This document shows positions 10,123 to 37,308 of a stretch of DNA of 37,822 nt, in pieces (the first letter of the stretch is position 1; each line of letters starts with the position of its first letter). This stretch comes from a virus (Duplodnaviria; Caudoviricetes): positions 1 to 37,822 of the IMG/VR virus record IMGVR_UViG_3300008117_000138. One strand, given 5' to 3'. The position numbers were made by a program, and so were the translations under genes. The notes beneath the pieces were generated by a model. It was not told the origin of the DNA. It searched no databases and saw only the letters and a program-made list of their open reading frames with translations.

Positions 10123-10132
10123 GATATATCTC

Positions 10133-11617: not shown

Positions 11618-11620
11618 CTT

Positions 11621-13333: not shown

Positions 13334-13353
13334 ATTAGTAATATCCAATACTT

Positions 13354-18400: not shown

Positions 18401-18589
18401 ACAGGGTCAACTGCAAAAAGTCCTGATGAGATTGTAGAGTACCTCTATGGTTTGTATTATCAGAACATGCTTGATAATAGAAACAGGCAACAGGAGTTTC
18501 AAAACTATATCAAGACAAATCAGAGTGGCTCACGAGCTGACTTTAATGAGCAGCTCAAAGCTCTTGGCCTTGGATATTTGATTAAATAA
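15485..18589 (+). CDS. Large helical virion/ejection protein preceding the vRNAP
   Basis: 1034 aa, no Cys, coiled-coil-rich N-terminal half. Its position matches the first of the giant cargo genes in crAss-like phages. No catalytic motif recognised. Confidence 0.65.
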   Translation: MAQYLPYIPEVFPEPALYKPDLNFFDRMLQRKQNQFEQGLNQVKSAYNSVLNAPLSDKANVPLRDAYIKQAQENLKIMGSSDLSLPQNIQAAQGIFSPFWEDDFISKDASLTKWYQGEASKLASWRDSPDEKVRSKYNGIAMMYLNNGLSALQNANRSADAYSKIEKRQAVPFTNIEQFLQEQAKGQGLEIKYDDPNGAYLVETINGQRSQKKYSVWAQSLVGNNFYDQFRVTGIVEKEERAKAIKKSNPNLSEQEIGNIIAKDVVSELQQGYKKRTEEVDVELSRVNSLLTSVAQANNPANQNLFDNLISERANLIARKDAINEEYKNFDKDTKDRLFNTVVGNPDGYFATLAKQRLVENWATGRASIESKLIKENAAWTSAQNLNLRQKEYDLNTQKAIWDRDQDLWEREHPTAGKTNTTSAAKLKDAQGNDIEAPVLGQDKENSIMYRGFSGIDITRNQATALDLFNQLQSKDFSEAHSLIFDQQGILGLAKNLGLTQEEIAHVATAFQKEVASGNAHKFTKEQTAAVTKLEKALVANQGVKNAGITSLTGPETARNALIAYAQDYFAQRNNLSKDGNDVPLNNTEFEALMRYMTGVEKLSRYTANEKNREDLIQKNIVSNKEYASLVVDRGGKKDLITLSDLAKDMPTMELREKASNELRKFSKEDVARMYMSGKLSGTKMGELVIDGKVYIPEKLNDISGGFAGRNPIVAWNTMYADVLTSKYGESSAFSKLMEKANQSIVPNLLMYREQSGKQGTAWTLYFMPNKTMGQGDRAAQIVDQALNTANADIYDNGADPKQLDTKTMDAIRALLKSEKNMEEYIGAEYIPQGVNGKRTLRIVFSKPISEESKAAIGNVNLSSISGQTFNIVLKDGTTAPALDALPNSTGYQVYDMIARGKVFKSDPVIEASGFKFAITPNVITSEGTADEQPSYVTVDLEFNNRVNEKDPKSGQMLTTVKPQKISQVIQLTGSTAKSPDEIVEYLYGLYYQNMLDNRNRQQEFQNYIKTNQSGSRADFNEQLKALGLGYLIK

Positions 18590-18608: not shown

Positions 18609-21600
18609 ATGTCCGTACCCAATAGTGTTATACCTGAAGCTTTACAGGGTGAATATTTTGATGACCCTATACTCTCCATTCCTGAACAGGAAACTGGAGT
18701 TTTTGATGTACTTAGTGCCGGTGATTATGGCGGAGCTTCAGCTAAATCAAGCATTAATTCTATAGAAAATAAACTTAGTGAGTTTGCAGGTTCTCCTACA
18801 AGTATTGAGACCTTGTCTGCACCTAGGTTTTTTGACTATGATGCTACTCAAGCCGATAGATACAAGCAGTCTAAATATTTTACTTCTATAGGCTTTGACC
18901 CTACAATTGGTAATGAAAACGAGTACCGTTATGGAGCACGTCAAACCTGGGGAGATGTATGGAAAAATGGTTTTTCTGGAATGTTTGCATTGGCCGGAAA
19001 TACCTATGTTGAAGGCTGGAAAGGATGGGGTCACTTAGCTGATGCTGTGGCTTCACAGGACTTTTCAAAACTTACAGGTACTGAAGATCAGCTTTTAGAA
19101 CAAGATAAAGCTACTAAAGATATACTTAATAAGTATGCAATATTCAGCACTCCTGAATCTGAAGAAGGTGTTTTTAACCGTAAGTTTTTTGGAGACATGT
19201 TACAACAGTCTGGATTTGCGGTTGGTACTATTGCTCAATTTCTTTCAGAAGAACTTATAACATGGGGGCTTTCTACAGAATTTTCTTTGGCTAAACTTGG
19301 AATGAGAGCTCCTGGTTGGGCAGGTAGAGTAGTATCTCATGCTGATGTAGCAGAGGATCTAGTTAAACTGGGTAATCCCGTATGGAAATCTAGAAGCTTT
19401 AATCAAGGTTTTGTACAAGCAGCTCGCCAATTTGTTCCTTTTGTAGACACTGCATATACAATGTCTAAGTATGGTAAGGCTGGTGCAGGAGCTTTACAGC
19501 TTGCTTCAATTGGAGTTGGTGGAGTAAGAAGGTTTTTGTCTGAAGCTAATATGGCTATGACAGAAGCTCGTATGGAAGCAGCTGGTACTTACGGTGAGCT
19601 ATATAATAAATTATATGACGAAGAGCTCAGAAAGACAGGCCAGGCTCCTATAGGTAGTGAGTTAGAAGCTATTAAAAATGCATCTATGGATGCTGCCTAT
19701 GATAACTTTAAAGTTAACACTGGCATCTTAATGGTTTCAAACCGTTTACAGTTTGACAACTTGTTCAGTCGTTTTGGGGCAGGTAGATCTTTCTTTGGAG
19801 CAACGGGTGAGTTTGCTGATGATGTACTAAAAGTTAGTGGCAAGTCTGCTGTAAGTGAGACAGGTGAAAAAACAATGAAAGCTTATGCAAAAGGTAAGCT
19901 GGGGACTTTTGGTTTATTGGGTGAAATATCTCGGGACTTTGGTAAAAGAACTGCGGCATGGGAGGCAACCAAATCTTTAGGTAGAAATTTATTTAAGTGG
20001 GAAACTACAGAGGGACTTCAGGAGTTATTTCAGGAAGGATCTAATAAAGGATTACAAGACTATTACTATGATATGTATCATGGTGCTAAAGGATACGATA
20101 GTAAGGCAGAGTCTATAATGGGCGGCATAGATAATCCATTTACTAATATCCAGGGTACAAAGACATTCCTTATGGGTGCTTTGACTGGTAGATTACTTTC
20201 TCCTATAAACTTTGCAGTAGGTAAGGCAAAATACTACTCCGGTACAACACGTGCTGAGAGAGCAGATAGGAAAACAAGATTAGATGAGTCTATTTCTTTG
20301 GTTAATGCTTTCTATGAAAAACCCGGTCTGTTTTTAAATGAGCATATTGCAAATGTAAAAGTTCAAGATCGTGCTGCTAAGAACATGGAAGAAGCCATCA
20401 AGAACCGTGACAAGTATGAGTTTGTAAACAACAAGGATGGTGCTTTTGCAAAGATGATGTCTGCTGCTATTAAGACAGACATGCACAAAGCCGTAATTAA
20501 TACTATCAGAGAATACGGTGATGCATTTAATGATGAAGAGTTTAAGCAGGCTTTTGGTCTGGATAAGACTCAGGAGAATATATCTTCTGTTAAAGACTAC
20601 TTTAACAAGGTAGCTGATGAAACTGAGCAATTCCACAAAACATGGAAGCAGCTTAAAGATAAGTTCGGAGATGCTGTTATGGTTGACTTATACAAAGAAG
20701 GAACTCCAGAACGTAAGATTGCATTAAGAGCTAAGCGTGCTTTGGATGATGCTATTGAAATCCTGGCTACGAATAATTATAAAGCTACTCGTTCTGCACA
20801 AAGAGCGGTAAATCTACAAACAGAAGTAGCAGCTATCCCAGGGATTGGAAGTAGTGTAGCAACTGCTTTCAGAAACATGGGAGCTATTCAAAATACTGAA
20901 AAAGAGATTGAGCTCTTAGAAAATGAAATCAAAAATCTAGAGAGTTCTGAGAAGAAAGACAAGGCTACTAAAGACTTAATCAAGTCTAAAAAGAATCAGC
21001 TTAAGTCTCTGAACAACTGGAAAGAAAATCATGAAGCCCTAAAGCTTAAGAATGTAAAACAGAAAAGGAAGTTTAAAAAAGCCATTTCTGCTTTTCAATC
21101 CTATTTGGTTTCAAAGAATATGGAGTCTGGAATAACTCAGGACGTTAAAGTTGATGAGGTAGAAGAAATTTATGAAAAGCTGATTGACTATGTAGAACTT
21201 AATAAAGATAGCAAGGACTATATAGATGCATATAATACACTTGCTAATCCAATCAAGTTTGTACAGGTTCACAAGCGTCTGCTAGATGCTATGGATGCTG
21301 CTGCTGAAAAGCTTAATCAGGAACATATTGCTGAAACAATTCAAGCTATTACTCAGAAAAAAGCAACTACTCCTGATGATCAAAAAGAAGAAGAAGCACC
21401 TGACTTTACTAAGTACATGCAGGATGCTTATGAAAGCATGAAAGGAGCTGGGCAAACCGACCTAAGTTTTGACGAGTGGGTTAATAGTCCTGCTGGTAAA
21501 ACTTTTACACAGTTATATAACAAGAAGTACAATAAGAATCAATCCTTAGCTGAAGAGGCTAAGGTGATGAAAGAAACACTTGCTACCATAAAAAAAGATA

Positions 21601-24600
21601 TTGAGGGAGCTGATACACTTACTCCAGAAATAATGGAGGATGTGTTTAATAGGCTTTCTATGGCTTTAGGTGTATCTATAGCTGAGGTAGAGAATGCATA
21701 CTTTGCTTATCAGGATACTTTAAAACCTGAAGAGGTAAAGCAGGCCTTGTTAGATATGGGTGTTAAAGAAGGTATGCCTGCAGAGCAGGTGGCTTCAATG
21801 ATGTCAAAATACTTGCTTCCTAAGTTTATAGATAACTTAATAGCAAATAATGGTCTTGCTAAGGCTAAACAACAGCAGGTAAATCCTGCTGATAACTTAG
21901 ACGTTATTGAATTGCCTTCTAGAAAGGTCAAGATGACCAAACCTAAACTCAACAAAGGTGAGAGTCTTATAGATGATGGTAAAGACGGTGTGTTTATTGT
22001 GAGGGGTGAAAACGGTCTGCACCAGATTATGGACTCAGATAGAAATGATCCTTTAGAAAGAAGCACTAGCGTAAGCTATGTAACAAAAGCAGAAGCCTTA
22101 GCTGCCCGTGATGAAATCATTGCTCAAAGAACAGAGAAAGATAAAAAAGACAGAAGCTTCTATGCTTTCAGTGGTAAAGATATCAGAGCTGGGTTGATCG
22201 TTACAGATAATAAAACTGGTAAAGAATATGTGGTTGCCACAAAGGGTGAGCCATTCTATGCTAACGAGGATAAAGACAAGAAGACTCCGCTCATTAGGCT
22301 AACGCTTCTACGAAACCGTCAAAGGACTAACAGTTCAATGATTGTGTCTAACCTTGATGGTTTTACTATTAAACAAAAAGTAGAGACCCAAGAGTCAGGG
22401 GAAGTAATTGACTCATCTGTGTTTAGACTAGTTCGTACAAATGAGCTCAGCCGAGTATACCCTCATATTAATAGAAATGCTAGCGAGTCTGAAGAAGCAG
22501 CTCAAAAAAGATTAGATACACTACTGAAAACTACAGATCCTAAAGAACTGGCTGCAGGTATTAGTATTAGAATAAGTGAAAACCCTAAGAATGATGCTTT
22601 AAAGAATGTGGCTGGAGGTAAGAAGACTAACGCCAATCTTGTACAAGCTAAAGAAAAATATAAAATACAGATTCTTTATAAGGGAAGCCCTATTGGCTAT
22701 CTAACAAACTATGACAACTTAAGATTTATGGCTGACAACGGTACTATTGTTCCGATGTCTAACCTTACTCTTGAGCAGTTCAGAAAGATTTTTGACAGTC
22801 AGGGTAAGGACCCAATGGCTCAAATGCAGGAGTTTAAGTCTAACTATAACTCTTCAAGAGCTGTATTTGCTGCACTAAGCAAGTTTGTAAAGCCAGGTCA
22901 GGAGGTTGAAATTACACCAGAGCAGGTAGCACAGATTATAAAGTTTAATGTAGGTACGGGTGAGTTTGACTTTGTAGAAAAAGGTGTGACATTTGATCAG
23001 CTTCCTTATAATACAATAGACGGCTATTACTATATTATTGACCGAAGTAAGCGTTATGGTAAAGGGTTTACCTTTAAGACTACTGAAATACCTATTACTA
23101 ATGCTACTGGTCAGGCTCGTAAAGATATTGAAAAGCAGATAGCTCAGGTAAGAGCTGTACGTGATACCACAGCCCAGTTAGGTAGGTATATTGCTGTAGT
23201 AAAAATGCCAAACGGAAATATCCGTTTTATTGAGTTAGCTACAGATCCAATGTCAGATGAGCAGTTGAATGACTTAGTTAACAAGCTTAACGAGCGTTCT
23301 GCTGTCACAAAAGAAAAGAACGTTGAGACTGGTGAAAATGATAAGAAAGAAAAGATCTATGTCCGTAAGAAGATAGACTACAATGAGGAAATTAACTCAG
23401 AAATTGCATCTACTTTATTTATATCTGTTCCACAACAAGGTATAGGTACTTATGTTGACTTTGCCTTGAATGACACAGGTAATCTTGAGCTTACTTTCCA
23501 TAAGAAAGTAGGTGACAAAGATATCCGTAGGCAGATATATGTTTATGGAAAAACCCTGGCAGACCCTGCAAAGTTTGCAAGTATAGATGATATGATCAAG
23601 CAGATAAATGCTGCTATAGAAAATCATGATAAGAACTATGCAAAGAATGAGTCTCACAAGATTGGGTTTACTCTAACCAGAGATAATTTTAAAATATCTA
23701 TACCAGATACTATTTCTATAAGCCAGGTAACCGGTAATGAAATTAAGTTTCGTACTGGTGTATCAGAGGATGTGGTAAAGAATGTACCGTTGTCTGTAAG
23801 AGCTATTACAGTTGACCCTGCTCCTTCTACTCCTCCTCAGTCTACGCAGGTTACTCAGTCTCAGCCCGCTACTAAGAATAAGGAGCTAACTGAGCAAGAA
23901 AAGCAAGCTATACGAGATAAGATAGCTCAGCAGTCTGGTGCCCCATCAGGTACTGGAATATCCCAGCAGCAAACAGAAACTAAACCTTCAAGTCAGAATC
24001 CAGCATTGGATCAGGCTATGTTGGAACATGATAGTTTGAAAAGGGATAAAGAGTTAGAAGTTATAAAACGTAGAGATGAAAAGATAGGCCAAGGTCTTGG
24101 TGGTGGCAAAGCTACAATAGAGGCTAATAATGAAGCTTCTGCTTTATTTGATAAAAAGATAAAGCAGGCTAAAGAAAAGATTAACCAGATAAAGAATGCT
24201 GGTAGGAATACTGCTTTAAAGATCACCAGTCGTCCAGTATTTGATCAAGGTAGTGTAGTAAACATTGATGAGTTTAGAAAATATATCAATCGTATACTTG
24301 GAGATAAGGTTTCTGTACAAGAGATGAATATTCTTGCTGATCGTCTTAAGAACGGTCAGATTACAGTAGGTAGATTTTTAACATACTTAGAGGCATTACA
24401 AAATGGGTCAACTTCTGTCAAAGGACGCATTGAGGTTGGTGCCAATACGCCTTTTAAATATCACGAGGCTTTCCATGCGGTGTTTCGTTTAATGCTTTCA
24501 GATACCCAGATAGATAAACTTCTTGCTTATGCAAAGATTGAGGTTTCTAAAAAAAGCATTAATGTAAAGTCTGAAATGCAGAAGATGCGTGAGCTTCACA

Positions 24601-27600
24601 CTATCTATGCAGAGATGTCTGATAAAGAACTGGAGGAAAGATTCTATGAAGAGTACATGGCTGACCGTTTTGAAGAGTTTAAAAACAACCAAGCTGAAAG
24701 TAAAACACTTCCTGGTATCCGTGGTTTCTTCCAAAAGCTTTGGGATTTTATAAAAAGTTTGTTTGCACGTGGTTCACGTAATGAGCTTATTAATCTGTTC
24801 CGTGAGATTGATCGTGGAGCCTATAGAAATAGTAAAGTACGGGATAACCGTTTTACCAAGCAAGATGCATTAAGTATTAGTGAGCCTGTGCTCAAAGCTA
24901 TTAAAGTTGGTGAAATAGACGTACTGGATGAAAACGGTATGTATATTACTATACCTAAGTATCTGTCTCAGCAAGAAGGTGACCAGCTTGCAAGCACTGT
25001 TGCTTCTATGTACCACATGCGAGTATTAAACAGCACTGGAAGTTACAATAAGAAAAAAGTGCTGGAAGATATTTTTGCAGACTTTGTAGAACTATACAAC
25101 CCAGATGGTTCTAAAAAAGAGTTTTACTTAAATGAAATGGATGGCTTGTATGAACAAGATCCTGAGCTGGCAAGAGAATACTATGAAAAGCTAAAACAGA
25201 AGTATGAAATCTTTGTTGAGGCTGATAACAGAAAGACTCTTGGTGAAGCTGTTGATGTTCACTTACGTATTATGGGGTATCAGCAGGAACTTGAAGATGA
25301 TGAGTTTGTTACAATGGAAGATGAATTTGGTTCTCGTGTGACTACAGACAACTGGAAAGAGACCCATTCAATTGGCGGATTTGGAAGCTTGAGTAAGTTC
25401 TTACGCCAATATATTGCTGCTACAACATTTACTGTTGATAACGATGAGTTTGGAAATACTCAGTTTGTAAACGGAGAGCCTCTTATTCAAGCTGTGAATG
25501 CTAATCTTGTGTATAATGGTGTTCTGAAAGCTGTTGCTAACATAACAGATCAGACTCAGTTTGTACGTAGATTACAACAGCTTAGAGATAATAATACTGA
25601 GACTGGTAAATTTCTTAATAAGTTTTTTAATGATGTAGACTTGACAGTTGATCCTGTCACAGGAGAGTTTACTGTAAATAATCCTAAGCAGGCTACTCTT
25701 TTCCAAATGGTTATTAAAGGGTTTCAGCAGTACACAGTTGACTATATCTTTATTAATAAAGACATCCGTAAGGGTAAAAAGATGTCTGCTCTTATGTTGG
25801 CTAACCGTATGGGAGAAGCCAAAGCTCAATTTACCCAGTGGCAGAACGCATATGTTCAGGTGTTTGAAACTGAAATTTTACGGTTAAAAAGCTCTGAAGA
25901 AAAGAGGGCTTTTGCAAAAGAAAGAACGGAAACACTTCAGGATCTTCTAACATATTTAGACCCAGGAACTTACATTTCAGACGAAGACTTACATATTGAG
26001 TCTCAAAGAATTAGTGATCAGCTTAAACAAGACCTGGGTATTTCTCTTTCACCATTGTTTATTAAGTTCTCTATAGCTTCTAAAAAGAAGGCTGATATTC
26101 GGACTGAAGCACAGCGTAAGCTTACAGAGTCTTACGCTGACATTGAAGGTACTACTATAGAGTCTGTAAAGCAGATTATTAAATCTATACAGGCTCTTGA
26201 GAACCCCTTTGCTAAGAACCTGGATAGTTTAAAGGAAGAGCTTATAGTTCTTCCTGGTGAAGAGCAGGACGAGCAGGATGCTGTGGATGATCTTGGGGAG
26301 GGCGGTAACGTAAGTCGTATTAACGATCTAGCTAAAGGTAATGCTATCTTTGATGAAACTGTATCTAGTACATCGTATAAGAACGCAGAAGGAGAACTAG
26401 TTTACGCTCACCAGTTGCCTACTTTCCATCTTGTTAAAGTAAACTCACTAAACAATGCAGAAACGTTAAATACAATATCTCAAGATGATTTTGTCTTGGG
26501 TAACATGTTGTTGGAATCAAATGAGTTTCGTCATTTATTAGGTGATCTTAAAGTAGAAAGAATAGAGGGTATGAAAAGCTCTATTCTGAATGAAACTGAA
26601 GATGGCAAGCTGATTGAAGACAAGACTATTTCTTCTAACCAGAATAAGGGTATTACATACGGCAGCTTTTCTGACCGTGAGTTTATAGTATCTCTGTTAG
26701 AGCTTTATAAGTATAACAAGGAGGTAAGGGGTGAGAAGGGTACTTTCTTTACAAGTCAGCATCTGATCAGGGTTATTGAAGCTTCTAACACCGGTGACAC
26801 AATTGGTCTTCCTATTGTTAAAGCAGTAGAGACAGATACAGACGGTAAAACTAAGCTTTCTAAAGAAGCAGTTATTACGCTTGCTAAAGAAGTAGCTCGG
26901 GAGTTTGCCAGAATCCAGAAAGTAAATCTGGAAATAAAGACAGGCATCTATAACGATGGTGAGATAGAAGGATACCATTATGCTGTTGATAGTAACGGAA
27001 ATAGAGACGCTAAGAAGAAACCCCGTGGTCTCAAGTTTTATAAGATGGCAAACATGCTTGGAAAGCAGCTTGCCGAAGAATTAGAGGCCAATGCTTTAGA
27101 TCCTTCATTTGATATTAATACCAAGATTGCCAAGATAAACTCACGTATCCAGGAATACTGGGGTGAGAAAATCAATGAGTTTGTGGACAAGCTGGATGAT
27201 CTTGGAGTAGTTACTAAAAGTAAGGATGAGGAAAACAACGAGACCATTATAAATAATCTTGTTGATGATTTTATAGTAACCGGTTTTGAGTCAAAGACAG
27301 ATGAGAACAAGAACATACCTGATGAGAAAAAGAATGGTAAGTTAAATTTGATTCCTGGTAATGTAAGACATAACCTTGGTCAGATCTTGATGAATGACTA
27401 TCTCAACACTTTGTCATTTAATCAGTTGCTATATGGAGATGAAGCCAAGGCCTTTAAAGATGACATTGATCAGGTTAAGCGTGCTAAAGGTGCTAACGGT
27501 TCTGGGGCTAGCTTAGAGTCTGTTATTCTTGCACCTGAGCTTGGTATTACTGAACAGTTTACTAAGTCTCACATATTGACATTCAATGATCCTAAGTACA

Positions 27601-30600
27601 AAGCTAAGTTTGCAGGTGGTTTAAAAGACAAGGCAGATGCTCAGTCTTACACTACAGTGAAGGGTATGAGGTATACTCTTTTTGGGCTTGGTCAACTTAC
27701 TGCTCGCAGAGCAGAGATATTAAATAAGATTGAAAAAGGTGAAAAGCTTAGCCCAGATGAGATCTTTGGTGACAATGGTCTGAAGTCAATAGAGGGCATG
27801 TTCAACTCATACAAGCTTGTATACTTTGACGGTCCTCAGTACATCAAGACTTCAACTGTAATGCTTACCAAAGAACTAACGTCTTTACAGGTTGATGGTA
27901 GGTGGATTGCCCGCCCAGGTTATGAAGAACTTCATGACTTGAGAGAGCGTATGGAAAGGTTTGAAACAGAGAACACTACAGTGACATTTGCTGCACCAAA
28001 ATCAGCTAGTAAGGGTATTAAGAGAAACATATTTGATTCTAGAACAGGTTTCAGACATGCCTCAGATGATAATTTTGTGGGTCAGAGTACTAAGTACTGG
28101 AGACTACAGCTGGTTAACCCATCTAATAAGATCCAGATAACAGATCCCACACAGGCTAAACAGATCATTATTGCTGAGCAGGATGACAGTACCCAAGTTA
28201 ACTTCATGGGTTCTAACACTACGGTAGGTGAACTAAAGAAAATCTATCTACAGGATACCGATCAACGTATTAAGAATAATTACTTCAGAGCACGTAATGA
28301 CATCTTTTCTATTGAACAAGGGTTTGAAGAACTAGGTAAGTCTATACAGCAGGATAAGATTACTGCCAAGCTTGAAAAGTTTCAAGACAGAGCTCTTGAA
28401 ACGCTTAGATCGTCCGGTGCTGACAGTCAACTGTTAGAGTTTTTCTCATTAGACGAGGAGACTGGCAAGCCTAAATATAACTTGAACAGCACTCTCACTC
28501 TTGAAAAGTATACTCAGCTATTCTTAGCTTACTTCTCTAAAGGTGTGATGAGTGAAAAGTCTCCAGGTCACTCTGTTGCTTTGATGTCAAACTTTGGCGT
28601 TAAAGTGGTAAAGCAGTTTACTGGAAGATTTGATGAAGAAGGTAATCCTATTGGTGAGGTAGTACAACGGTCTGTTGTAGAAAAAGATCCTAAAAAGTAT
28701 ATGAGGGCTAAGCGTTGGAACAATGACTTGGACCGTCAGTTTACAGATCTCAAAGAAGGAGATTTTTATATAGATGACTTGCGTCACAATGTACCAGAGT
28801 ATGATAAAAATGGCAAGATCATTGGTCGTTACTCAGAGTTTATAATGCCTCCTCACTTTATGGAGGATATGAATCTTAGACCGGGTGATAGAATTCCTGA
28901 TCATATTGCTAAAATGTTTGGCGTACGTATTCCAAGTCAGGACAAACACTCATTCATATCATTAAGAATGGTGGACTTTATGCCTGCTTACTACGGTTCA
29001 ACAGCAGTATTTCCTCACGAACTTATTGAGATTTCTGGAGCTGACTTTGACATAGATAAACTCTATATGCATATTGCTGATACCTATACAAAGGGTGGCA
29101 AGCGTGTGGCATATGGCTCTGCTAAAACAGCTGAAGGAAAGTTTGAAGAGTTTGTAAAGTGGAACTCAAAGAATAATAAGACATTCAAAGAAGAACTAAA
29201 TTCTAGAAAAGAAACTGATCCTGCGTATGCAGCAGTTCTTAAGAAGATAGCAGATCTTAAAAAGTTAGAAAAAGACATTGACAAAGCTTTTGAAAACATT
29301 CAAGAATCAGATGGTTCTATTCGCCAGGGCTTTGCAGCTGCTATTAAAAGTTCAAGACTTGTTGATGCTGTCAGACAGAAGTTATCAGGTATACCTGAGC
29401 TGAAGGAGTTTTCAGATGAGTATGGTCTTATAGAAGACACATATTTTGTTAGAGACCTGCAGGAAATGTTGAAGGCATTAGATGAAAAAGAGGAAAGAGA
29501 CTTTGTACTTAGTATGGGTACTCAGTGGTATAATGAATTTAATTCTATAGCCAGGGAGATGCAAGATATAGAAACAAGACTTATTCAGGATACTTTAAAG
29601 AGCATTGGCCTTCCTGCTACTTTTACAGCACTTGCTAGCTCTAAGACAGAGCTAAACAACGGTGTCTTGAATAACCGAATACTTGCACAGAAGATAGCTC
29701 TTCTTAACAATGAGCATATTACCAAAGGCGGTACTAGTGCTATTGGTTTTGAAGTGGCATCAGTAAAAGCACTTAGTGATCTATTAGATTCTAATACATC
29801 TGATAATCTTTTGGATCTTCTGTCAACAGGCGTTGATGAGGATGGAAATAAAATATATCCAAAAGGTTTGGCAGAGGTGCTTCTTGAAGGAGGATCTGAC
29901 ACTGACAGCTTAATTGGAAAGTACAAGGCCTACAAGAATAACAAGGAAGGTTCTAGAAATATTGGTCCTGCTGTAAATGCCATGCTTGTTTATGCTATTA
30001 TGAACAACTTTGGTATTAAGTTAAGGGATACTTATGTAGGATCAGATGGTAAGCAAGCTAAGATGTTTAAGTTCAAACTAAATGGGCATGTCTTTTCTGA
30101 CTACGGAAATACTAGAAGCTACAATTCTTCTACAGGTAAGTATGATTCTAACCAGCGTATATTCAATACAATATCTACATTGGTATCGGCTATGACCGAT
30201 AACGCTAAAGAGCGTCTGGCTGCACGTCTGGGTCTTAACATTGAGGCTGTTGGTTATGTATCTAATATGGTTGCCCAAGGTGTACCTCTTCGTTCTGCAG
30301 TTTTATTTATGCTTCAACCTGTTGTGCGTGAATACTTTGAGCAGACAAAGATTGCCTCTAACAATATTAAGACTGGTGCTGAAAGTCTGATATTCAAGTC
30401 TAATGTAGCCAAAGAGCTTCTTCAAAAATATCAGGAACGAGCCGGTGAAGAATATTCTAAAGAGGACTTAACAGATGACATACTGGTAAGTAACATAAAG
30501 GATAATGGTTCAAGTGCTACATACCAAGCTTCTGTAATGGAAGACTTTATGGGCATTATGAATCAAAGCCGTTATTATAGTGCCGTAGCCGGTATCTTAA

Positions 30601-32837
30601 AACTTACAAAGGGTCTTGGTACCAGCTTTGAAGAATATGATGCTATCAACGAAAAGATTGATATGCTAGGACTTAGAGTAAAAGATGACGGTAAGTTTGA
30701 AAAGTATCTAGATCCTATATATGGTGGCCCCCCTCCTTTTGACCTGCGTCAAATTATGATGGGCTACGATGATAGTAAGCCTTTCCATACATACATACAA
30801 GGTTATATTAAGATAGCTGATCAGATCAGTGAAATTAGTAAAGGCATGTTCCTGGAAAGAACAGCTGTCTTCAAGCGTATTGAGGAGATCATCAAAGCTA
30901 ACCTAAATGTCAGACCGTCTCTTAGAGAAAGATTTAATACAGAACTTAAGAAGGACCTTATATCTTATCTCTCAATCAAGGCTTACAGAAAATACTTAGC
31001 GGAGAGTGGAAGAACAGGTACTCTTTCTACTATGACAAATGCTCTTATCTATGATGAAGCAGCAGTAGCAAAGGGTGAGAACTTTATGGATATTGTAGAG
31101 ATAATGAGAACCATTAGACAAAAGCTTCCTAATAACTATCTTGCTAATCAATTCTTAAATGTAATCTCTACTAGTGTAGTAGATGCTGAATCTAAAGTAG
31201 CTTTAAACCCCAAGAACAGAGATGGTATTAATAAACTAGAAGCTAATACATGGGCTAAGCTGAGTGAATATCAGGTTGAGAAGCTTCGTGATGCTTTTGT
31301 TGATATCTATCAGTCTGATATGGACTTTGATGGTAAAGGCCGCAATGGTCGTGATATGGCAAATGCACTATTTAATTATCTTGTTGTAAAAGATGGTGCT
31401 CAGTTTAGAAGTGGTTCATTTATTAGGTATATACCTAACTTCATATTTACAGATTTCTTGAACAGTACTGGCAAAGCAAACGATGTGCTCAAGCTTTCAG
31501 TAACTGCAGATAACGTAGAGGAGTTGGATGAAGAATATAAAAAAGTTTTTGGTGTAACATCTCTGGAGTTGTTTAATGAGTTCATGACTAACTATGTAAC
31601 TCACACAGCTAACTCTTACTATGTAAGAAAGATGCTTATAAACAACAAATCTACTTTTGAGCCAACAGGTAACAAAAGCGTTGACAGCTTTGAACCTGCA
31701 TCACTGGTGGAAACAGAAAAAGGAATAAGTATAGATATCTTCCGCGGTACTAGAGATAAGCAGCAAGCTATAGCTGATATGAGTCTTGAAGATCAGGCAG
31801 GTATTACCTTTATGACTGATGAAGATTATATTGAGTATGTAACATCTTTGACTGAAGAGGAAAGAGAAGAACTTAAAGAGTCTAGAACTAAGAGTCGTAA
31901 GTTTAATGATGATGAGAAAGGAAGGTTTAAGAAAAACATGCAGTCACTCAGAGATAAAGGATTTATAAGTAACCCTTCTGGGCAGGTGATGTTTCCTTAT
32001 ATTATCAAAGTGAGTAGTGGTGACATGTTTAAAGCTGATCAGTACTACATTCTTAAGTCTGTAAGAAAGGCTAAAAAGAATATGGACAAGAACTTTGATG
32101 CTAAAAAGCTTATTCAAAAGGGTGAGCTAGTGCCACAAGGTATTGCTGCATTCTATGAGCCAGTACAAAGAACAGGTGCTGCTAAGACATTTAAGGGTGC
32201 GGCCATGTTTGATCCAATCCCGGAGACAGCTAAGCTTCCTAGGTACAGAGGTACTATTAGTAACAGTACTAATTTCAATCCATTTTATCAGACCAAGTCA
32301 GATGATCCTATTAAAGAAGAAAGCTGGATGCTCAATCATGGATTTCCAGTACAGCAAACAGCTGCTGATGCTAAAGTAGCTGCTGCTTCTAAACCCATAG
32401 ATACTGGATCTCGTAGTCCTAAGTCTATACTTTTAGAAGATTATGGTATTACAATGAAGATTGAACCTGGTAAAGGTGTTACCTTTGAAGGAGATGTCAT
32501 TGACATGCTTAAAGAAAATATGTCTGCTAAAGAGTTTGAAAAAATTGTTACTCCTGCAGATTTGCTAAAGACCTTAGGTTACATACCTAGTGCATCTGCT
32601 CCTAATGTGTCAACGTCTTCACAAGCTTCTGCAGAAAGTATTAAACCAGCAACTACGGATGGAAAGCCTGATATTGACGCAATTAAGCGTATGGTTGAAA
32701 GCAATCAGATATTTGGTACTCCAGGTTCACCTACAAGTGAAAAGACACCTCCTGTAGATCCTGAAGAAATAAAACGCAGGATTGAGATGATGTCTCGTGG
32801 ACAAAACCCTCTTAATGATGAGTGTGCGGGTGGCTAA
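18609..32837 (+). CDS. Giant virion-packaged RNA polymerase (crAss-like, two-barrel) fused to an ejection-type N-terminus and a zincin domain
   Basis: 4742 aa. FGVRIPSQ (Arg 28926) and GADFDIDK (DFDID 29043-29057) match the crAss-like vRNAP catalytic loop known from phi14:2 gp66. Further motifs are KRAKG, DAQSY, KSASK, RLQ and SAMTDNAKE. HEAFH at 24462-24476 has a downstream EEYMAD. The N-terminal ~550 aa contain Gly/Ala-rich hydrophobic segments. Confidence 0.92.
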   Translation: MSVPNSVIPEALQGEYFDDPILSIPEQETGVFDVLSAGDYGGASAKSSINSIENKLSEFAGSPTSIETLSAPRFFDYDATQADRYKQSKYFTSIGFDPTIGNENEYRYGARQTWGDVWKNGFSGMFALAGNTYVEGWKGWGHLADAVASQDFSKLTGTEDQLLEQDKATKDILNKYAIFSTPESEEGVFNRKFFGDMLQQSGFAVGTIAQFLSEELITWGLSTEFSLAKLGMRAPGWAGRVVSHADVAEDLVKLGNPVWKSRSFNQGFVQAARQFVPFVDTAYTMSKYGKAGAGALQLASIGVGGVRRFLSEANMAMTEARMEAAGTYGELYNKLYDEELRKTGQAPIGSELEAIKNASMDAAYDNFKVNTGILMVSNRLQFDNLFSRFGAGRSFFGATGEFADDVLKVSGKSAVSETGEKTMKAYAKGKLGTFGLLGEISRDFGKRTAAWEATKSLGRNLFKWETTEGLQELFQEGSNKGLQDYYYDMYHGAKGYDSKAESIMGGIDNPFTNIQGTKTFLMGALTGRLLSPINFAVGKAKYYSGTTRAERADRKTRLDESISLVNAFYEKPGLFLNEHIANVKVQDRAAKNMEEAIKNRDKYEFVNNKDGAFAKMMSAAIKTDMHKAVINTIREYGDAFNDEEFKQAFGLDKTQENISSVKDYFNKVADETEQFHKTWKQLKDKFGDAVMVDLYKEGTPERKIALRAKRALDDAIEILATNNYKATRSAQRAVNLQTEVAAIPGIGSSVATAFRNMGAIQNTEKEIELLENEIKNLESSEKKDKATKDLIKSKKNQLKSLNNWKENHEALKLKNVKQKRKFKKAISAFQSYLVSKNMESGITQDVKVDEVEEIYEKLIDYVELNKDSKDYIDAYNTLANPIKFVQVHKRLLDAMDAAAEKLNQEHIAETIQAITQKKATTPDDQKEEEAPDFTKYMQDAYESMKGAGQTDLSFDEWVNSPAGKTFTQLYNKKYNKNQSLAEEAKVMKETLATIKKDIEGADTLTPEIMEDVFNRLSMALGVSIAEVENAYFAYQDTLKPEEVKQALLDMGVKEGMPAEQVASMMSKYLLPKFIDNLIANNGLAKAKQQQVNPADNLDVIELPSRKVKMTKPKLNKGESLIDDGKDGVFIVRGENGLHQIMDSDRNDPLERSTSVSYVTKAEALAARDEIIAQRTEKDKKDRSFYAFSGKDIRAGLIVTDNKTGKEYVVATKGEPFYANEDKDKKTPLIRLTLLRNRQRTNSSMIVSNLDGFTIKQKVETQESGEVIDSSVFRLVRTNELSRVYPHINRNASESEEAAQKRLDTLLKTTDPKELAAGISIRISENPKNDALKNVAGGKKTNANLVQAKEKYKIQILYKGSPIGYLTNYDNLRFMADNGTIVPMSNLTLEQFRKIFDSQGKDPMAQMQEFKSNYNSSRAVFAALSKFVKPGQEVEITPEQVAQIIKFNVGTGEFDFVEKGVTFDQLPYNTIDGYYYIIDRSKRYGKGFTFKTTEIPITNATGQARKDIEKQIAQVRAVRDTTAQLGRYIAVVKMPNGNIRFIELATDPMSDEQLNDLVNKLNERSAVTKEKNVETGENDKKEKIYVRKKIDYNEEINSEIASTLFISVPQQGIGTYVDFALNDTGNLELTFHKKVGDKDIRRQIYVYGKTLADPAKFASIDDMIKQINAAIENHDKNYAKNESHKIGFTLTRDNFKISIPDTISISQVTGNEIKFRTGVSEDVVKNVPLSVRAITVDPAPSTPPQSTQVTQSQPATKNKELTEQEKQAIRDKIAQQSGAPSGTGISQQQTETKPSSQNPALDQAMLEHDSLKRDKELEVIKRRDEKIGQGLGGGKATIEANNEASALFDKKIKQAKEKINQIKNAGRNTALKITSRPVFDQGSVVNIDEFRKYINRILGDKVSVQEMNILADRLKNGQITVGRFLTYLEALQNGSTSVKGRIEVGANTPFKYHEAFHAVFRLMLSDTQIDKLLAYAKIEVSKKSINVKSEMQKMRELHTIYAEMSDKELEERFYEEYMADRFEEFKNNQAESKTLPGIRGFFQKLWDFIKSLFARGSRNELINLFREIDRGAYRNSKVRDNRFTKQDALSISEPVLKAIKVGEIDVLDENGMYITIPKYLSQQEGDQLASTVASMYHMRVLNSTGSYNKKKVLEDIFADFVELYNPDGSKKEFYLNEMDGLYEQDPELAREYYEKLKQKYEIFVEADNRKTLGEAVDVHLRIMGYQQELEDDEFVTMEDEFGSRVTTDNWKETHSIGGFGSLSKFLRQYIAATTFTVDNDEFGNTQFVNGEPLIQAVNANLVYNGVLKAVANITDQTQFVRRLQQLRDNNTETGKFLNKFFNDVDLTVDPVTGEFTVNNPKQATLFQMVIKGFQQYTVDYIFINKDIRKGKKMSALMLANRMGEAKAQFTQWQNAYVQVFETEILRLKSSEEKRAFAKERTETLQDLLTYLDPGTYISDEDLHIESQRISDQLKQDLGISLSPLFIKFSIASKKKADIRTEAQRKLTESYADIEGTTIESVKQIIKSIQALENPFAKNLDSLKEELIVLPGEEQDEQDAVDDLGEGGNVSRINDLAKGNAIFDETVSSTSYKNAEGELVYAHQLPTFHLVKVNSLNNAETLNTISQDDFVLGNMLLESNEFRHLLGDLKVERIEGMKSSILNETEDGKLIEDKTISSNQNKGITYGSFSDREFIVSLLELYKYNKEVRGEKGTFFTSQHLIRVIEASNTGDTIGLPIVKAVETDTDGKTKLSKEAVITLAKEVAREFARIQKVNLEIKTGIYNDGEIEGYHYAVDSNGNRDAKKKPRGLKFYKMANMLGKQLAEELEANALDPSFDINTKIAKINSRIQEYWGEKINEFVDKLDDLGVVTKSKDEENNETIINNLVDDFIVTGFESKTDENKNIPDEKKNGKLNLIPGNVRHNLGQILMNDYLNTLSFNQLLYGDEAKAFKDDIDQVKRAKGANGSGASLESVILAPELGITEQFTKSHILTFNDPKYKAKFAGGLKDKADAQSYTTVKGMRYTLFGLGQLTARRAEILNKIEKGEKLSPDEIFGDNGLKSIEGMFNSYKLVYFDGPQYIKTSTVMLTKELTSLQVDGRWIARPGYEELHDLRERMERFETENTTVTFAAPKSASKGIKRNIFDSRTGFRHASDDNFVGQSTKYWRLQLVNPSNKIQITDPTQAKQIIIAEQDDSTQVNFMGSNTTVGELKKIYLQDTDQRIKNNYFRARNDIFSIEQGFEELGKSIQQDKITAKLEKFQDRALETLRSSGADSQLLEFFSLDEETGKPKYNLNSTLTLEKYTQLFLAYFSKGVMSEKSPGHSVALMSNFGVKVVKQFTGRFDEEGNPIGEVVQRSVVEKDPKKYMRAKRWNNDLDRQFTDLKEGDFYIDDLRHNVPEYDKNGKIIGRYSEFIMPPHFMEDMNLRPGDRIPDHIAKMFGVRIPSQDKHSFISLRMVDFMPAYYGSTAVFPHELIEISGADFDIDKLYMHIADTYTKGGKRVAYGSAKTAEGKFEEFVKWNSKNNKTFKEELNSRKETDPAYAAVLKKIADLKKLEKDIDKAFENIQESDGSIRQGFAAAIKSSRLVDAVRQKLSGIPELKEFSDEYGLIEDTYFVRDLQEMLKALDEKEERDFVLSMGTQWYNEFNSIAREMQDIETRLIQDTLKSIGLPATFTALASSKTELNNGVLNNRILAQKIALLNNEHITKGGTSAIGFEVASVKALSDLLDSNTSDNLLDLLSTGVDEDGNKIYPKGLAEVLLEGGSDTDSLIGKYKAYKNNKEGSRNIGPAVNAMLVYAIMNNFGIKLRDTYVGSDGKQAKMFKFKLNGHVFSDYGNTRSYNSSTGKYDSNQRIFNTISTLVSAMTDNAKERLAARLGLNIEAVGYVSNMVAQGVPLRSAVLFMLQPVVREYFEQTKIASNNIKTGAESLIFKSNVAKELLQKYQERAGEEYSKEDLTDDILVSNIKDNGSSATYQASVMEDFMGIMNQSRYYSAVAGILKLTKGLGTSFEEYDAINEKIDMLGLRVKDDGKFEKYLDPIYGGPPPFDLRQIMMGYDDSKPFHTYIQGYIKIADQISEISKGMFLERTAVFKRIEEIIKANLNVRPSLRERFNTELKKDLISYLSIKAYRKYLAESGRTGTLSTMTNALIYDEAAVAKGENFMDIVEIMRTIRQKLPNNYLANQFLNVISTSVVDAESKVALNPKNRDGINKLEANTWAKLSEYQVEKLRDAFVDIYQSDMDFDGKGRNGRDMANALFNYLVVKDGAQFRSGSFIRYIPNFIFTDFLNSTGKANDVLKLSVTADNVEELDEEYKKVFGVTSLELFNEFMTNYVTHTANSYYVRKMLINNKSTFEPTGNKSVDSFEPASLVETEKGISIDIFRGTRDKQQAIADMSLEDQAGITFMTDEDYIEYVTSLTEEEREELKESRTKSRKFNDDEKGRFKKNMQSLRDKGFISNPSGQVMFPYIIKVSSGDMFKADQYYILKSVRKAKKNMDKNFDAKKLIQKGELVPQGIAAFYEPVQRTGAAKTFKGAAMFDPIPETAKLPRYRGTISNSTNFNPFYQTKSDDPIKEESWMLNHGFPVQQTAADAKVAAASKPIDTGSRSPKSILLEDYGITMKIEPGKGVTFEGDVIDMLKENMSAKEFEKIVTPADLLKTLGYIPSASAPNVSTSSQASAESIKPATTDGKPDIDAIKRMVESNQIFGTPGSPTSEKTPPVDPEEIKRRIEMMSRGQNPLNDECAGG

Positions 32838-32878
32838 TCTTTAGTAGTACTTCTAATATAAAATAAATCCAGATCCCT

Positions 32879-35779
32879 ATGCCGTGTCAGTTATTTAGAA
32901 CAAATGGTAAAGTTGATAAAGTACTGGCTCCTAATGAGAAGCCTTCTATTCTATATGAAGAAATCTTAAAAACTGTAAAACAGGAAGGTGCTCAGAAGTT
33001 TATTGATAGTATACCTTATTTAAAAGACCGTCTTGAAGATGGTACACTGCTGAACGAATCTGCAGAAGAGATTGCTGTTGGTATATGGAGTATTGCATAC
33101 AGCTCAGAGTATCAGACTTTTTTTACTAATCTGAATAAAACCTTGGGTGTGTTTGCTGATGAGAACGGGGAACCCAAGTTTGCTGTTTTTAAGAATAATG
33201 TATTAAACCAGAACAGTCGTTTTGGTAAAGTAAGTACTGGATATGTGCTAGATCCAGAGAAGGCCGAGTTTTTAAAGAAGGCTGGTAAAAGAGGTAATAA
33301 ACTTCAGCAAGCTATTGTAGAGGCCCTTGTAGAGAAGCCAGAAAATCCTGTAGTATTAGAACCAACCAATCACGTATATATAGACTCAGAAGGTGAAATA
33401 TACACTTCTGTGACTACTGCTATTAAAGGTAAGTTGGAAGATGACGCTTATGCTGCTAATCGTGCAATAGGGACGGCTGTAGATAAACTTCTACAAGGAA
33501 TTATTGCAGGAAAGAACTTCAAGGATTCTGCTTCTGATATAACAGAGATAGAGGAATCTGTCTTGAAAAATATCTATACTGTATTACAAGCTTATATAGA
33601 TGGTATTACTAGAGATGGATCTATTGTAGTTACGCAGGTAGCTTTGGGAGATCCTAGTTCTAAAGTAGCTGGATCACTTGATCTGCTTGTAATTACTCCA
33701 AGCGGTAGACTTCGGGTCATTGATTTGAAGGTATCAAAGAACTCAGTTAAGTCTGAAAACTATGATAAAAAGTATCCTGTAAAGGCTGGTTCTGTTTTTG
33801 TAGGGCAGACACTTTCTACAAGACAACAACATGGTATACAAGTAGGTACTTATAAAAAGCTTATTGAGCTTGCCGGTTTTGAAGTAGAGGACGTATCTAC
33901 TCTTCACTTAAAAGTTGATCTGGACAAATCCAATAAAGTAACAGATATAAACTGGGAAGGAGAAGTAAGACATCCTTTGTCAATTAATAGGGACATGGTG
34001 GATAAAGTAATACCTACTGAGGTAGAACCAAGAGACCGTTCTGCAGAGTTGAAAAAAGAACTTGGGAAAGACAACCCGGCTGATGATCCAGATTTTCTTT
34101 CTGAAGACGAAGCTAAACCTGAGAAGGAAGTATTCGGTGATATGTATGAACGCATGTATCAAGAGGTTAGAAAAGTTATAAACCTGTTTGAGACCAGGAA
34201 AAAGTATTTGGAAAGAATAAGGGAGGGTAAAACTAGTGTAGACAAGAACTTAATGATTGATAAGATTAATGAGTTGATTGTTATGATGGGATCTGAACTT
34301 AAAATGGACAGACCATCAGTAGCTTATGGTGCCTTTCTCAGATTTGCTACTCAAGAAATTAAAGACTACCTGAAACAGATAACTGATCCTAATGCATTAA
34401 ATGATCCTAACTATATAACACTATTACTTGAGGTAGATAAGTATATTGAGTCTTATAGAGGAATTGTAAATATCAAAGGTGCGGGAAGTAGAGAGCAGCA
34501 AGCTATGCTACTACAACTTCTTGATATACTTGATGATACAAAGGAAACTATTGATGATAATATAGAGCTCTATGTAAAAAAGGTTGTAAAAGATAATACG
34601 TCAAGAGACTTGTCTGAGGATGAGCTTAATAGTATTATGAAGGAGGTATACGATATACCTACTGAAGATTACTTTTTGGGGGATATGGCTACTTCTAAAG
34701 ATACATTACTAGCCATAGCAGATAAGATATATAAAGGAGCTGTTAACCGTGCTAAAGATAATACTGAGACTACTATTAGTCGTATTCAACAGTTTGGAAA
34801 CGCTTTGTTGAAAGCTGCAGGTATAAGTAAACCTGATAATAAGTTTTTTGATTTCATGAAGGTTTTTGATAAGGCTGGTAAGTTTACAGGTAGGTATGTT
34901 ACAAAGATTGGCTCTCAGTACTTTGACATGTATTACACGGTCAAGAATAAGATAACCGAGAAGAATGGTGAACGTAAGCAGTATATTCCGATTTTAGACC
35001 CAGCTAGTGCTAGACAAGAAGACTTGGATTATAACATTAAGCTTTTTTATGATAAAGCAAGTTGGAGAGAATTTAATAATGCTGAAATTCTAGGCCCTAA
35101 CGGAGCAGAAGATGGTAAATATCATAAGTATACTGACTCTTATAAAATTATTCGTAACCGTTATCAAGAACTAGTAGCTTATAACAGACCTGATGGAAGT
35201 GTTTTTTATAAGTGGGAAAAGAAGAGTGGTATAACAGATGAACAATATGAGCAATTCAGGTTAAAGTATTTTAATGAAGTAAACTACTGGGGTGCAGAGA
35301 TGGAAGCAGACGGCACTTTTAAAGGTAGGGTTACTTTAAAAACTGGATACTTTGTAAAGAGTGACTTTGTAGAAGTAAGAGATATTGCAGAAGATGGTAC
35401 AGATTTGCGTGATGCTAAGTATGTAAAGTTGATGAATCCAAAAACAGACCTTGAAAAGGCTCAGTCAGAATTTTATAAAGCTTGGGTTGAAGAATACCAA
35501 ACTGCATTAGAAAAACTTCCTCCTGAAGTAGCAGCTCAGATGCGTGGTAAAGTTGGTAGAGTTAGAGGGGCTTTCTTTGATGCATTAAGAAGCAAAGGTC
35601 CAGGCTTTACTAAAGCTGTGGCTAAAGCTATGAAGAATATGTTTACTGCTGACGCCTACACAAACCAAAGACTGGTAGATGAACTTGGACAGATAGACCG
35701 TGGTTTACCTCTTATGTATGTAGGCAAACTTCAGAACGAAGGAAGAGTGGAGTATTTAAAAAATGAGGTGATCTTGTAA
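32879..35779 (+). CDS. Giant virion protein, N-terminal part, with a PD-(D/E)xK (RecB-like) nuclease domain
   Basis: 966 aa. HVY...YTSVTT...GTAVD...AGSLDLL (Asp 33680)...IDLK (33722-33730)...QVGTY (QxxxY 33839-33853). N-terminal APNEKPS..LY....DENGEP motif of phage polyvalent proteins. Confidence 0.8.
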   Translation: MPCQLFRTNGKVDKVLAPNEKPSILYEEILKTVKQEGAQKFIDSIPYLKDRLEDGTLLNESAEEIAVGIWSIAYSSEYQTFFTNLNKTLGVFADENGEPKFAVFKNNVLNQNSRFGKVSTGYVLDPEKAEFLKKAGKRGNKLQQAIVEALVEKPENPVVLEPTNHVYIDSEGEIYTSVTTAIKGKLEDDAYAANRAIGTAVDKLLQGIIAGKNFKDSASDITEIEESVLKNIYTVLQAYIDGITRDGSIVVTQVALGDPSSKVAGSLDLLVITPSGRLRVIDLKVSKNSVKSENYDKKYPVKAGSVFVGQTLSTRQQHGIQVGTYKKLIELAGFEVEDVSTLHLKVDLDKSNKVTDINWEGEVRHPLSINRDMVDKVIPTEVEPRDRSAELKKELGKDNPADDPDFLSEDEAKPEKEVFGDMYERMYQEVRKVINLFETRKKYLERIREGKTSVDKNLMIDKINELIVMMGSELKMDRPSVAYGAFLRFATQEIKDYLKQITDPNALNDPNYITLLLEVDKYIESYRGIVNIKGAGSREQQAMLLQLLDILDDTKETIDDNIELYVKKVVKDNTSRDLSEDELNSIMKEVYDIPTEDYFLGDMATSKDTLLAIADKIYKGAVNRAKDNTETTISRIQQFGNALLKAAGISKPDNKFFDFMKVFDKAGKFTGRYVTKIGSQYFDMYYTVKNKITEKNGERKQYIPILDPASARQEDLDYNIKLFYDKASWREFNNAEILGPNGAEDGKYHKYTDSYKIIRNRYQELVAYNRPDGSVFYKWEKKSGITDEQYEQFRLKYFNEVNYWGAEMEADGTFKGRVTLKTGYFVKSDFVEVRDIAEDGTDLRDAKYVKLMNPKTDLEKAQSEFYKAWVEEYQTALEKLPPEVAAQMRGKVGRVRGAFFDALRSKGPGFTKAVAKAMKNMFTADAYTNQRLVDELGQIDRGLPLMYVGKLQNEGRVEYLKNEVIL

Positions 35780-37308
35780 ACAACCTGATAGCTTTTGCTA
35801 GTATGGCTGAAAACTATGAGGTAATGAGCAATATTGAATCTGATCTGCAGGCTATTGCTAAAGTAATGGATGACCGTGTTTACTATGAAGTAGATTCATT
35901 AGGTAACAAACTGATACGTAAAGGATCTAAGTTGACTAAAGACGATGAAGGCAAGCCTGTTATTAAAAGACCTGAAGATGTATTGGCAACTAAACGTCTT
36001 AGAAAGTGGTTTCAAATGGTTTATTATAATAATCAGGAGTTTAACCGTTCTACCATAGCCATGGTAGCTAAGCGTATTCAGAATTTGACTTCACTTAAAG
36101 GTGTCGGCTTTAACGTATTTGGAAATATTAACAACTACATAATGGCTCGTATCAATACATCTATTGAAACAGCCGGTGCGTTATATTACGACAGGTCTGC
36201 TGCAAATAGAGCTGTGCGGGAATACAATACAGATTATCTTCCTGGTGTATTTAGAGGGCTTGGTAAAAGTAGTGACTCATACTACATGAACAAGAAACCT
36301 AACAGTAAGTATGAAGCTCTTGTTGAGCACTTTCGTATGGTTAGAAAGTATCAAGCTGACGCAGGTAAGGTTGATGTAATGAGCTGGGCGTACTTGTTGC
36401 AAGAAGGAGGTGAATACAATGCACAGTCAAAGTCTGGTATAGCTATTTTGATGAGCAGACAGATTACTAATTCTAAGACAGGTGAGTCAATGTCTGTCTA
36501 TGATGCTTTTGAGTTTAATCCAAACACTGGTGAGCTGTCTTTAAAAGACGGATTTGAGATGTCAGATAAAGAGAGATACGATCTTAATAACTACATCCTT
36601 GAAGTGAATAAGCAAATACATGGTAACTATGCCTTTGAAGACAGGATGGTTATTCAAGAGACATGGCTAGGGCAGCTTGCTGCACAGTTTCATAAGTGGA
36701 TATATCCAGCTTATAAAGTAAGATTTAAAAAACGTTACGCAGATGAAAACCTAGGTGACGTAGAAGGTCGTTATGTAACTATTCTTAATCTTTTAAAATA
36801 TATCAAAGAGTCCGAAGGATCATTTTTAGAAAAGCTTAGAAGCGGATGGGAAGGTCTTGATGAGATACAGGTTAAGAATATGTATAAGAATCTTGCCGAG
36901 CTTGCTTTCTTTGCAGCTAGTTTTGCTATGTACGGGGTATTCAGAGCTCTTGCTGAAGGAGTAGATGATGATGATAGAACAATGAGACGCTGGTTAAACT
37001 TTATGGCTTATCAGCAAAGCCGGCAGATGATGGAGATATCTACAATGATGCCTGTTGTTGGATTTGAAGAACAGTATCAGATTGCTAAGTCACCAATAGC
37101 TATTTTAACAACTCTCAAAGATTTTGGAGAGGCTGTTAAAACTACTATGCTTATACCTTTTCCTCCATATGATAAAAACTATTATGAGCGTGGAGTTCAT
37201 GAAGGTGATTTAAAAGCTTGGAAAGAATGGAAAGATGTTATTCCTGCACTAAACGTGTTTAACAAATGGGAGGCATACGATCAGGTAAAAACTTTCTACA
37301 TAAAATAA
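35767..37308 (+). CDS. C-terminal part of the same giant virion protein (membrane-associated domain), separated by a frame disruption
   Basis: The frame is open from 35767 (GDLVNNLIAFAS) before the Met at 35803 and overlaps the last codons of the previous ORF in the -1 frame. It contains IHGNY...QFHKW...EGRY and hydrophobic LAELAFFAASFAMYGVFRALA (about 36892-36957). Confidence 0.7.
   Translation, partial: GDLVNNLIAFASMAENYEVMSNIESDLQAIAKVMDDRVYYEVDSLGNKLIRKGSKLTKDDEGKPVIKRPEDVLATKRLRKWFQMVYYNNQEFNRSTIAMVAKRIQNLTSLKGVGFNVFGNINNYIMARINTSIETAGALYYDRSAANRAVREYNTDYLPGVFRGLGKSSDSYYMNKKPNSKYEALVEHFRMVRKYQADAGKVDVMSWAYLLQEGGEYNAQSKSGIAILMSRQITNSKTGESMSVYDAFEFNPNTGELSLKDGFEMSDKERYDLNNYILEVNKQIHGNYAFEDRMVIQETWLGQLAAQFHKWIYPAYKVRFKKRYADENLGDVEGRYVTILNLLKYIKESEGSFLEKLRSGWEGLDEIQVKNMYKNLAELAFFAASFAMYGVFRALAEGVDDDDRTMRRWLNFMAYQQSRQMMEISTMMPVVGFEEQYQIAKSPIAILTTLKDFGEAVKTTMLIPFPPYDKNYYERGVHEGDLKAWKEWKDVIPALNVFNKWEAYDQVKTFYIK

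Follow-up and report, generated by a model that had tools for sequence, protein, structure and literature searches.

Crassviruses are the most abundant phages of the human gut, and how they order the packing and ejection of their ~0.7 MDa of polymerase-linked cargo is the question raised by the locus described here. The stretch analysed (hereafter the window) is the whole 37,822-nucleotide (nt) record IMGVR_UViG_3300008117_000138, a fragment that is 29% complete, and it carries the module of the virion RNA polymerase (RNAP). Its four open reading frames (ORFs) of 1034, 4742, 966 and 501 residues hold, by computed count, two cysteines (Cys) in 7,243 residues. These are residue 4739 of the 4742-residue RNAP (codon TGT, 32823-32825) and residue 3 of the 966-residue ORF that follows (32879-35779; codon TGT, 32885-32887); the 1034-residue ORF and the 501-residue ORF (35803-37308) have none, and a preliminary description of this DNA had counted correctly in all four. 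We show below that Cys at facing ends is the rule at the real breaks of the gp47-RNAP-gp49 module in crAss-like loci, and we think it probable that the pair forms a head-to-tail disulfide, which would replace the peptide bond lost where a polyprotein is split, with docking, oxidation, ordered exit and reduction as proposed steps. If two Cys were placed at random, the chance of one in the final 15 residues of the RNAP together with one in the opening 10 of its neighbour would be ~6e-6, a figure whose intervals were picked post hoc, the count across genomes being the real test.

On one point the preliminary description has to be corrected, as it took the 966- and 501-residue ORFs for separate proteins. 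Relative to locus L005, 127 nt are missing from the window near 35766-35768; contigs from three of four sequencing runs, flagged as possible sources of the record, bridge that site with the same extra 127 nt and otherwise identical flanks; and for the database protein P0001 (1518 residues, Cys3 its only Cys) the match is 99.8% to the first piece and 100% to the second. Since all of these are intact across the break, the two ORFs are one gene, which gives three proteins and not four, and the deletion is likely an assembly artefact. In 20 of 20 database proteins retrieved, Cys3 is again the only Cys. Genetic codes 15 and 4 read the ORFs of the window no better than the default code. The 1034-residue protein, judged by gene position, is probably cargo protein C2; it gave no homology match to crAss001 gp46 or phi14:2 g068. 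It lies outside the coupled chain, because it has no Cys and the RNAP end that faces it has none either.

The identity of the module comes from profile matches. A profile of the catalytic region (A1) matches phi14:2 gp66 (6VR4; E 6e-15), the N-terminal part of the RNAP matches crAss001 gp47 (E 2.5e-59) and phi14:2 g067 (E 8.6e-31), and the 501-residue piece matches crAss001 gp49 (E 2e-23) and phi14:2 g065 (E 6e-14); a phmmer search of the window RNAP against PDB gave no match. The window holds what defines a Crassvirales RNAP module, namely a large single-chain two-barrel RNAP with a DFDxD motif and homology to phi14:2 gp66, together with a gp47/gp67-like part and a gp49/gp65-like part that lie next to it or are fused to it. 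The earlier label of 'nuclease' for the 966-residue ORF has moderate support: a PHROG exonuclease profile matches (Table 1), while Pfam PF12705 (PDDEXK_1) reaches only E 0.0055, below its cut-off. The crAss001 homologues gp47, gp50 and gp49 are virion cargo (PMC10172136), and phi14:2 gp67-gp66-gp65 form a virion-packed RNAP module that is one polyprotein in some phages (bioRxiv 10.1101/2020.03.07.982082). Packaging in the virion and ejection have been shown for these homologues, and the proteins of the window would share both.

For the count across genomes we gathered 176 RNAP-centred loci, taking the best 80 of about 500 matches per scan; 175 of them have an RNAP ORF (L170 has none), and clustering by RNAP core gave 117 clusters at 90% identity and 67 at 70%. 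L001-L004 and L103-L110, which are duplicates or not RNAP-centred, were omitted from the counts, and L019 and L020 are false matches. Ends were classed with two profiles that take no account of Cys, one for the gp47 N-part and one for the gp49 C-part, and a Cys was scored within the last 15 residues (tail) or the first 10 (head). The expectation that C- and N-terminal Cys are conserved together in neighbouring giant genes was borne out. The RNAP ends in Cys in 147 of the 149 loci with a separate gp49 (all-yes in 100/102 clusters at 90% identity; at 70%, 54 of 56 clusters are all-yes, 1 all-no and 1 mixed), and the ORF after it begins with one in 145/148. The same holds for the N-end of a separate gp49 (130/132), the C-end of a separate gp47 (29/31) and the N-end of an RNAP to which gp47 is not fused (32/38). 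No Cys was found at the free C-end of gp49 (0/126), the N-end of an RNAP with gp47 fused (0/37), the C-end of fused proteins (0/13) or the N-end of gp47 (0/2). The interior Cys frequency of ~0.0002 would give <0.4% per scored interval, and in a comparison set of other complete ORFs of 200-900 residues from the same loci a head Cys was seen in 9/72 and a tail Cys in 14/72.

The exceptions can be traced. Five Cys-less ends (L142, L057, L053, L146 and L133) belong to fragments of an RNAP whose counterpart in a sister locus is intact. In L183 the reading frame of gp49 is broken, in L073 the Cys stands at residue 20, and L065, to judge by length and neighbours, is a gp47-fused protein that the profile did not recognise. 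In L051 the RNAP end is interrupted by ~2 kb of different sequence (L051:13700-16220), from misassembly or a true insertion, and a frame that ends in Cys stands directly before gp49.

As the preliminary description had anticipated, the terminal Cys are absent where the genes are fused: five fully fused, complete proteins of 5,005-5,636 residues (L066, L071, L072, L085 and L186) have no Cys at all. A FastTree phylogeny of 69 RNAP cores, which carried long-branch warnings, needs five or more switches between the split and the fused state. New breaks tell the same story in reverse. In L031 and L135 the RNAP is cut at a site where that of the window is continuous (~residues 3930-3970), with Cys on either side and with a third type of head and tail (in L031 at 11518-14097), and in L016 an inserted protein of 384 residues has Cys at both ends. 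Among named phages, phi14:2 has four Cys in the 5,398 residues of g067, g066 and g065, every one at facing ends, and the rule is obeyed by phi14:2, DAC15, cr50_1, cr7_1, cr3_1, cr127_1, p-crAssphage and crAss001; in the last, gp47 lies on the opposite strand and retains its tail Cys. IAS fits at the readable ends, one of its breaks having ambiguous bases, and crAss002 fits if gp33 begins at Met33, which gives the usual Cys3. The annotated start of crAss002 gp33 (L193:9738-22475) is probably 32 codons too early.

That these Cys survived by chance, or that a nucleotide signal at the junctions (translational coupling or read-through) happens to spell Cys, is barely credible. The predominance of TGT (86 and 90 of 99 junction codons) is what such a signal might leave, yet TGC occurs too (13 and 9 of 99), the gaps between the genes run from -13 to +500 nt, opposite-strand genes obey the rule, and artefactual gene breaks are found without the pair. 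Codon and gap counts and the opposite-strand genes already contradict it.

What, then, do the two Cys form? The preliminary description offered an intermolecular disulfide or a shared metal site; the former stands as the best reading and has a precedent, and the latter is disfavoured, as no conserved histidine (His) or second Cys lies nearby. The precedent is the pre-ejectosome of Anabaena phage A-4L (cyanopodophage A4), in which, as in the window, adjacent giant ejection proteins have one Cys each at facing ends: gp27 has its sole Cys at residue 1715 of 1717 and gp26 at residue 5, and the Cys1715-Cys5 disulfide has been seen by cryo-electron microscopy in the virion (PMC12002296). The window shows the same arrangement, each of its two giant proteins having its only Cys at the end that faces the other, and we consider it quite likely, from this analogy and the conservation of the pair, that a direct disulfide would join tail to head in crassviruses.

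A shared metal ion, or a non-covalent contact of the two thiols at the interface, seems very improbable. It would need no oxygen, in keeping with the presence of the rule in gut phages, and the tails are net acidic. On the other hand, the A4 link is a disulfide, and candidate ligands are scarce in the two main families of a clustering in which the heads of 115 junctions formed families of 79, 22, 3 and 2 with nine singletons. Across 101 junctions the tail Cys has no second Cys close to it, His occurs within 12 residues of it in 8/79 and 0/22 tails and after the head Cys in 9/79 and 1/22, and the head domain has no invariant further Cys or His, although more distant ligands could serve.

Signals of the CaaX and lipoprotein kinds place Cys at a fixed position, -4 from the C-end or directly after a signal peptide. 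The tail of the window, with Cys at -4, resembles a CaaX end, and the tail Cys of p-crAssphage gp47 has no evident partner, as might be expected if each terminal Cys were a sorting tag, joined not to the other Cys but to a different partner (a protein of the virion, an oxidoreductase of the host, or a modifying group of the lipid or prenyl type). We hold this to be highly improbable. The positions vary (tail -1 to -14, head 3 to 8), unlike those of fixed-position signals; Cys3 follows no signal peptide; fully fused proteins do without the tag and free ends never have it; and the type of tail follows the head family of the partner. As to the two specific signals, the tail Cys is at -4 in 15/99 and the head Cys at residues 3-8 without a signal peptide, and both were rejected.

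For the head-to-tail disulfide we propose the following course. In the reducing cytoplasm, as the particles assemble, the head domain would dock the tail before it with no covalent bond, and the Cys pair would be locked by later oxidation, either following lysis or in the periplasm. The linked unit of 6,260 residues would be packed 1:1 and would exit through the tail in order, the polymerase being released afterwards by host thioredoxin or glutathione systems; the absence of other Cys would prevent wrong cross-links. That the proteins leave as a single thread and are then freed by reduction has, in our view, slightly less than an even chance.

The main rival to the thread is a disulfide that acts as a staple in the virion, keeping the packed cargo together in its stoichiometry, the proteins being ejected separately or reduced first, which we judge unlikely. 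The A4 bond is described as an extra stabilisation of a helix-in-cleft contact (PMC12002296), and all of the co-conservation counts would fit a staple equally well; however, the pairs keep strictly to a C-to-N direction along the order of the polyprotein and are equivalent to a fusion of the genes, as continuity predicts, whereas a staple could be placed anywhere. Several points tell against the thread, or against the bond itself. Sequence alone cannot separate a thread from a staple. The A4 precedent holds by analogy without detected homology, as gp27 and gp26 gave no profile or BLAST match to crAss proteins or head profiles in weak searches that would miss remote kinship. The sample is skewed toward the clade of the window. 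In p-crAssphage, gp47 (L022:5069-7642), which lies outside the RNAP module, has its sole Cys second from the C-end, and the next gene has no Cys to partner it. The purge of interior Cys is relaxed in cr7_1 (13 Cys per protein) and in L070 (21 interior Cys). Finally, phages that infect anaerobic gut hosts keep the rule too, and oxidation is less assured there.

The head that would receive the tail in the window belongs to family 1. Its Cys3 is invariant in 21/21 alignment rows, which were selected for Cys3. Among 48,161 solved chains, a search with its predicted structure gave only one match with Z of at least 5, residues 2-94 of phi14:2 gp66 (6VR4; a middling Z of 5.5, root mean square deviation 3.1, 70 aligned residues; next match Z 2.9), and its sequence profile matches the gp66 N-end with E 1.2e-4. 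From the agreement of fold and profile, the same module begins gp49 in the window and the RNAP in phi14:2, facing a Cys-ended partner each time. Other searches with the head were negative: Foldseek against BFVD and PDB (none at E<=0.001), A3 against PDB sequences, a Pfam scan (none above cut-off), tblastn against cultured phages and retrieval of longer homologues, and in 13 fused proteins the profiles of the heads matched no interior segment convincingly. The family-0 head is modelled as three helices (predicted local distance difference test, pLDDT, 80) with generic helical matches only (best Z 5.2), and a profile of family 3, built on two sequences, returned only noise. The poor alignment between families 0 and 1 (hhalign probability 14%) does not show a common origin.

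A search with the family-1 head profile gave 1,307 representatives at E<=0.001; the figures that follow are from the 150 matches listed. In 141 of these the domain is N-terminal and an early Cys is always present, as expected of a profile that includes it. The profile is blind to the tail, and the unbiased part is therefore the contrast at the other end: among the 81 head-bearing proteins of at least 600 residues, a tail Cys is found in 0/40 with the chain-ending gp49 domain and in 32/41 without it, interior Cys numbering 8 in 29,479 residues. In nine proteins the best match was internal or offset, and 6/9 of them have no Cys at either end. ART-PolyVal occurs in 4/7 two-ended proteins scanned, one of which also has Kinase-PolyVal. 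P0032, P0057, P0062, P0069 and their kin form a family of 720-800 residues with Cys at both ends in 22/23; two were scanned, with no Pfam match, and the fetched loci contain no homologue. In P0022, P0123, L100 and L184, Cys-free internal partial copies of the family-1 head precede ART-PolyVal in polyvalent proteins; such copies are a possible source of the head module.

Tails and heads may also be matched to each other. Tails before family 0 are helix-favouring and those before family 1 polar, and a leave-cluster-out classifier reading the head family from the tail was right in 68/79 and 19/22 cases. It ordered 7/7 within-genome pairs correctly, six of which share one gene layout, and a test of tail type against head family on independent pairs gave 3 same, 0 opposite and 2 without difference (p 0.25). 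Keying of tails to heads is suggestive only. A predicted complex of head domain and tail peptide, with a score of 0.19 against a mark of 0.32, speaks neither for nor against a contact. It is conceivable, though we lean against it, that several families of head domain act as modular keyed couplers, each capturing its matching tail peptide and locking it by a disulfide, such that a head plus a tail would splice any protein into a megadalton injection train in set order. If so, genes could be cut at new sites and polyvalent effector modules of the ADP-ribosyltransferase or kinase kind inserted, and a redox-reversible polyprotein would come with a small, portable tag that could direct cargo into virions and deliver proteins in order. 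The 384-residue protein of L016 (L016:13831-14985) lies between RNAP and gp49 and has a degenerate zincin-like motif, a family-0 head and a family-1-type tail; the next gene begins at a GTG that overlaps its stop.

The A4 case differs from the present one in that its accessible text presents one junction in one phage as stabilisation, with no RNAP and no comparison with fusion (PMC12002296). The modules of phi14:2 and crAss001 consist of homologous, virion-packed proteins that are fused in some phages; in the window the gp47 and gp50 equivalents are fused, which leaves a single junction. Mutual interactions were thought likely to control the order of cargo ejection in crAss001, whose virions have inter-subunit disulfides in the tail (PMC10172136), and the text consulted for the two phages mentions no terminal Cys or link between the proteins (bioRxiv 10.1101/2020.03.07.982082; PMC10172136). 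Ejection proteins of Schitoviridae (N4 gp50-52, DEV gp71-73) share the near-total suppression of Cys, being Cys-free, which was attributed to passage through the periplasm; they differ in having an unrelated T7-like RNAP, and no retained terminal Cys is reported in the text available (PMC11445570). Those of crassviruses have been called unresolved (PMC13434306). Our literature search, made in a library without most subscription papers, did not find the rule stated for Crassvirales; within the literature searched, one such bond is known (A4), and an order-wide rule interchangeable with gene fusion was not found.

The rule makes definite predictions: pairs g067 C1797-g066 C3 and g066 C2179-g065 C3 in phi14:2, and gp47 C2339-gp50 C5 and gp50 C2404-gp49 C5 in crAss001. 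It also serves annotation, as true breaks carry the Cys pair and assembly breaks do not, and it corrects gene starts.

Table 1. Coordinates of the module features in the window
Feature	Position	Strand	Basis or remark
1034-residue ORF	15485-18589	+	0 Cys; upstream of RNAP
4742-residue virion RNAP, gp47-like part fused to gp50/gp66-like part; first chain link	18609-32837	+	homology and Cys count
DFDID catalytic motif, residues 3479-3483 of RNAP	29043-29057	+	
RNAP tail peptide: polar, acidic end; only Cys fourth from stop	32796-32837	+	
gp49/gp65-like gene, 1518 residues when intact, last chain link; C-end free, without Cys	32879-37308	+	read as 966 + 501 residues owing to the 127-nt deletion
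Family-1 head domain, ~110 residues, Cys3, beta-hairpin plus helices	32879-33208	+	AlphaFold pLDDT 93 (residues 1-110)
PD-(D/E)XK-like nuclease region, residues 147-345 of the gp49-like protein	33317-33913	+	PHROG 298 exonuclease E 6e-10

Elsewhere in the window, a protein of 1750 residues (4870-10122) has an ADP-ribosyltransferase-like domain (PF03496, residues 590-757, E 3e-8) and only two Cys, both in its C-terminal DUF5872. Four adjoining ORFs at 4870-15426 have repeated short motifs ending in GG (for example MxxGG), seen by eye in the translations.

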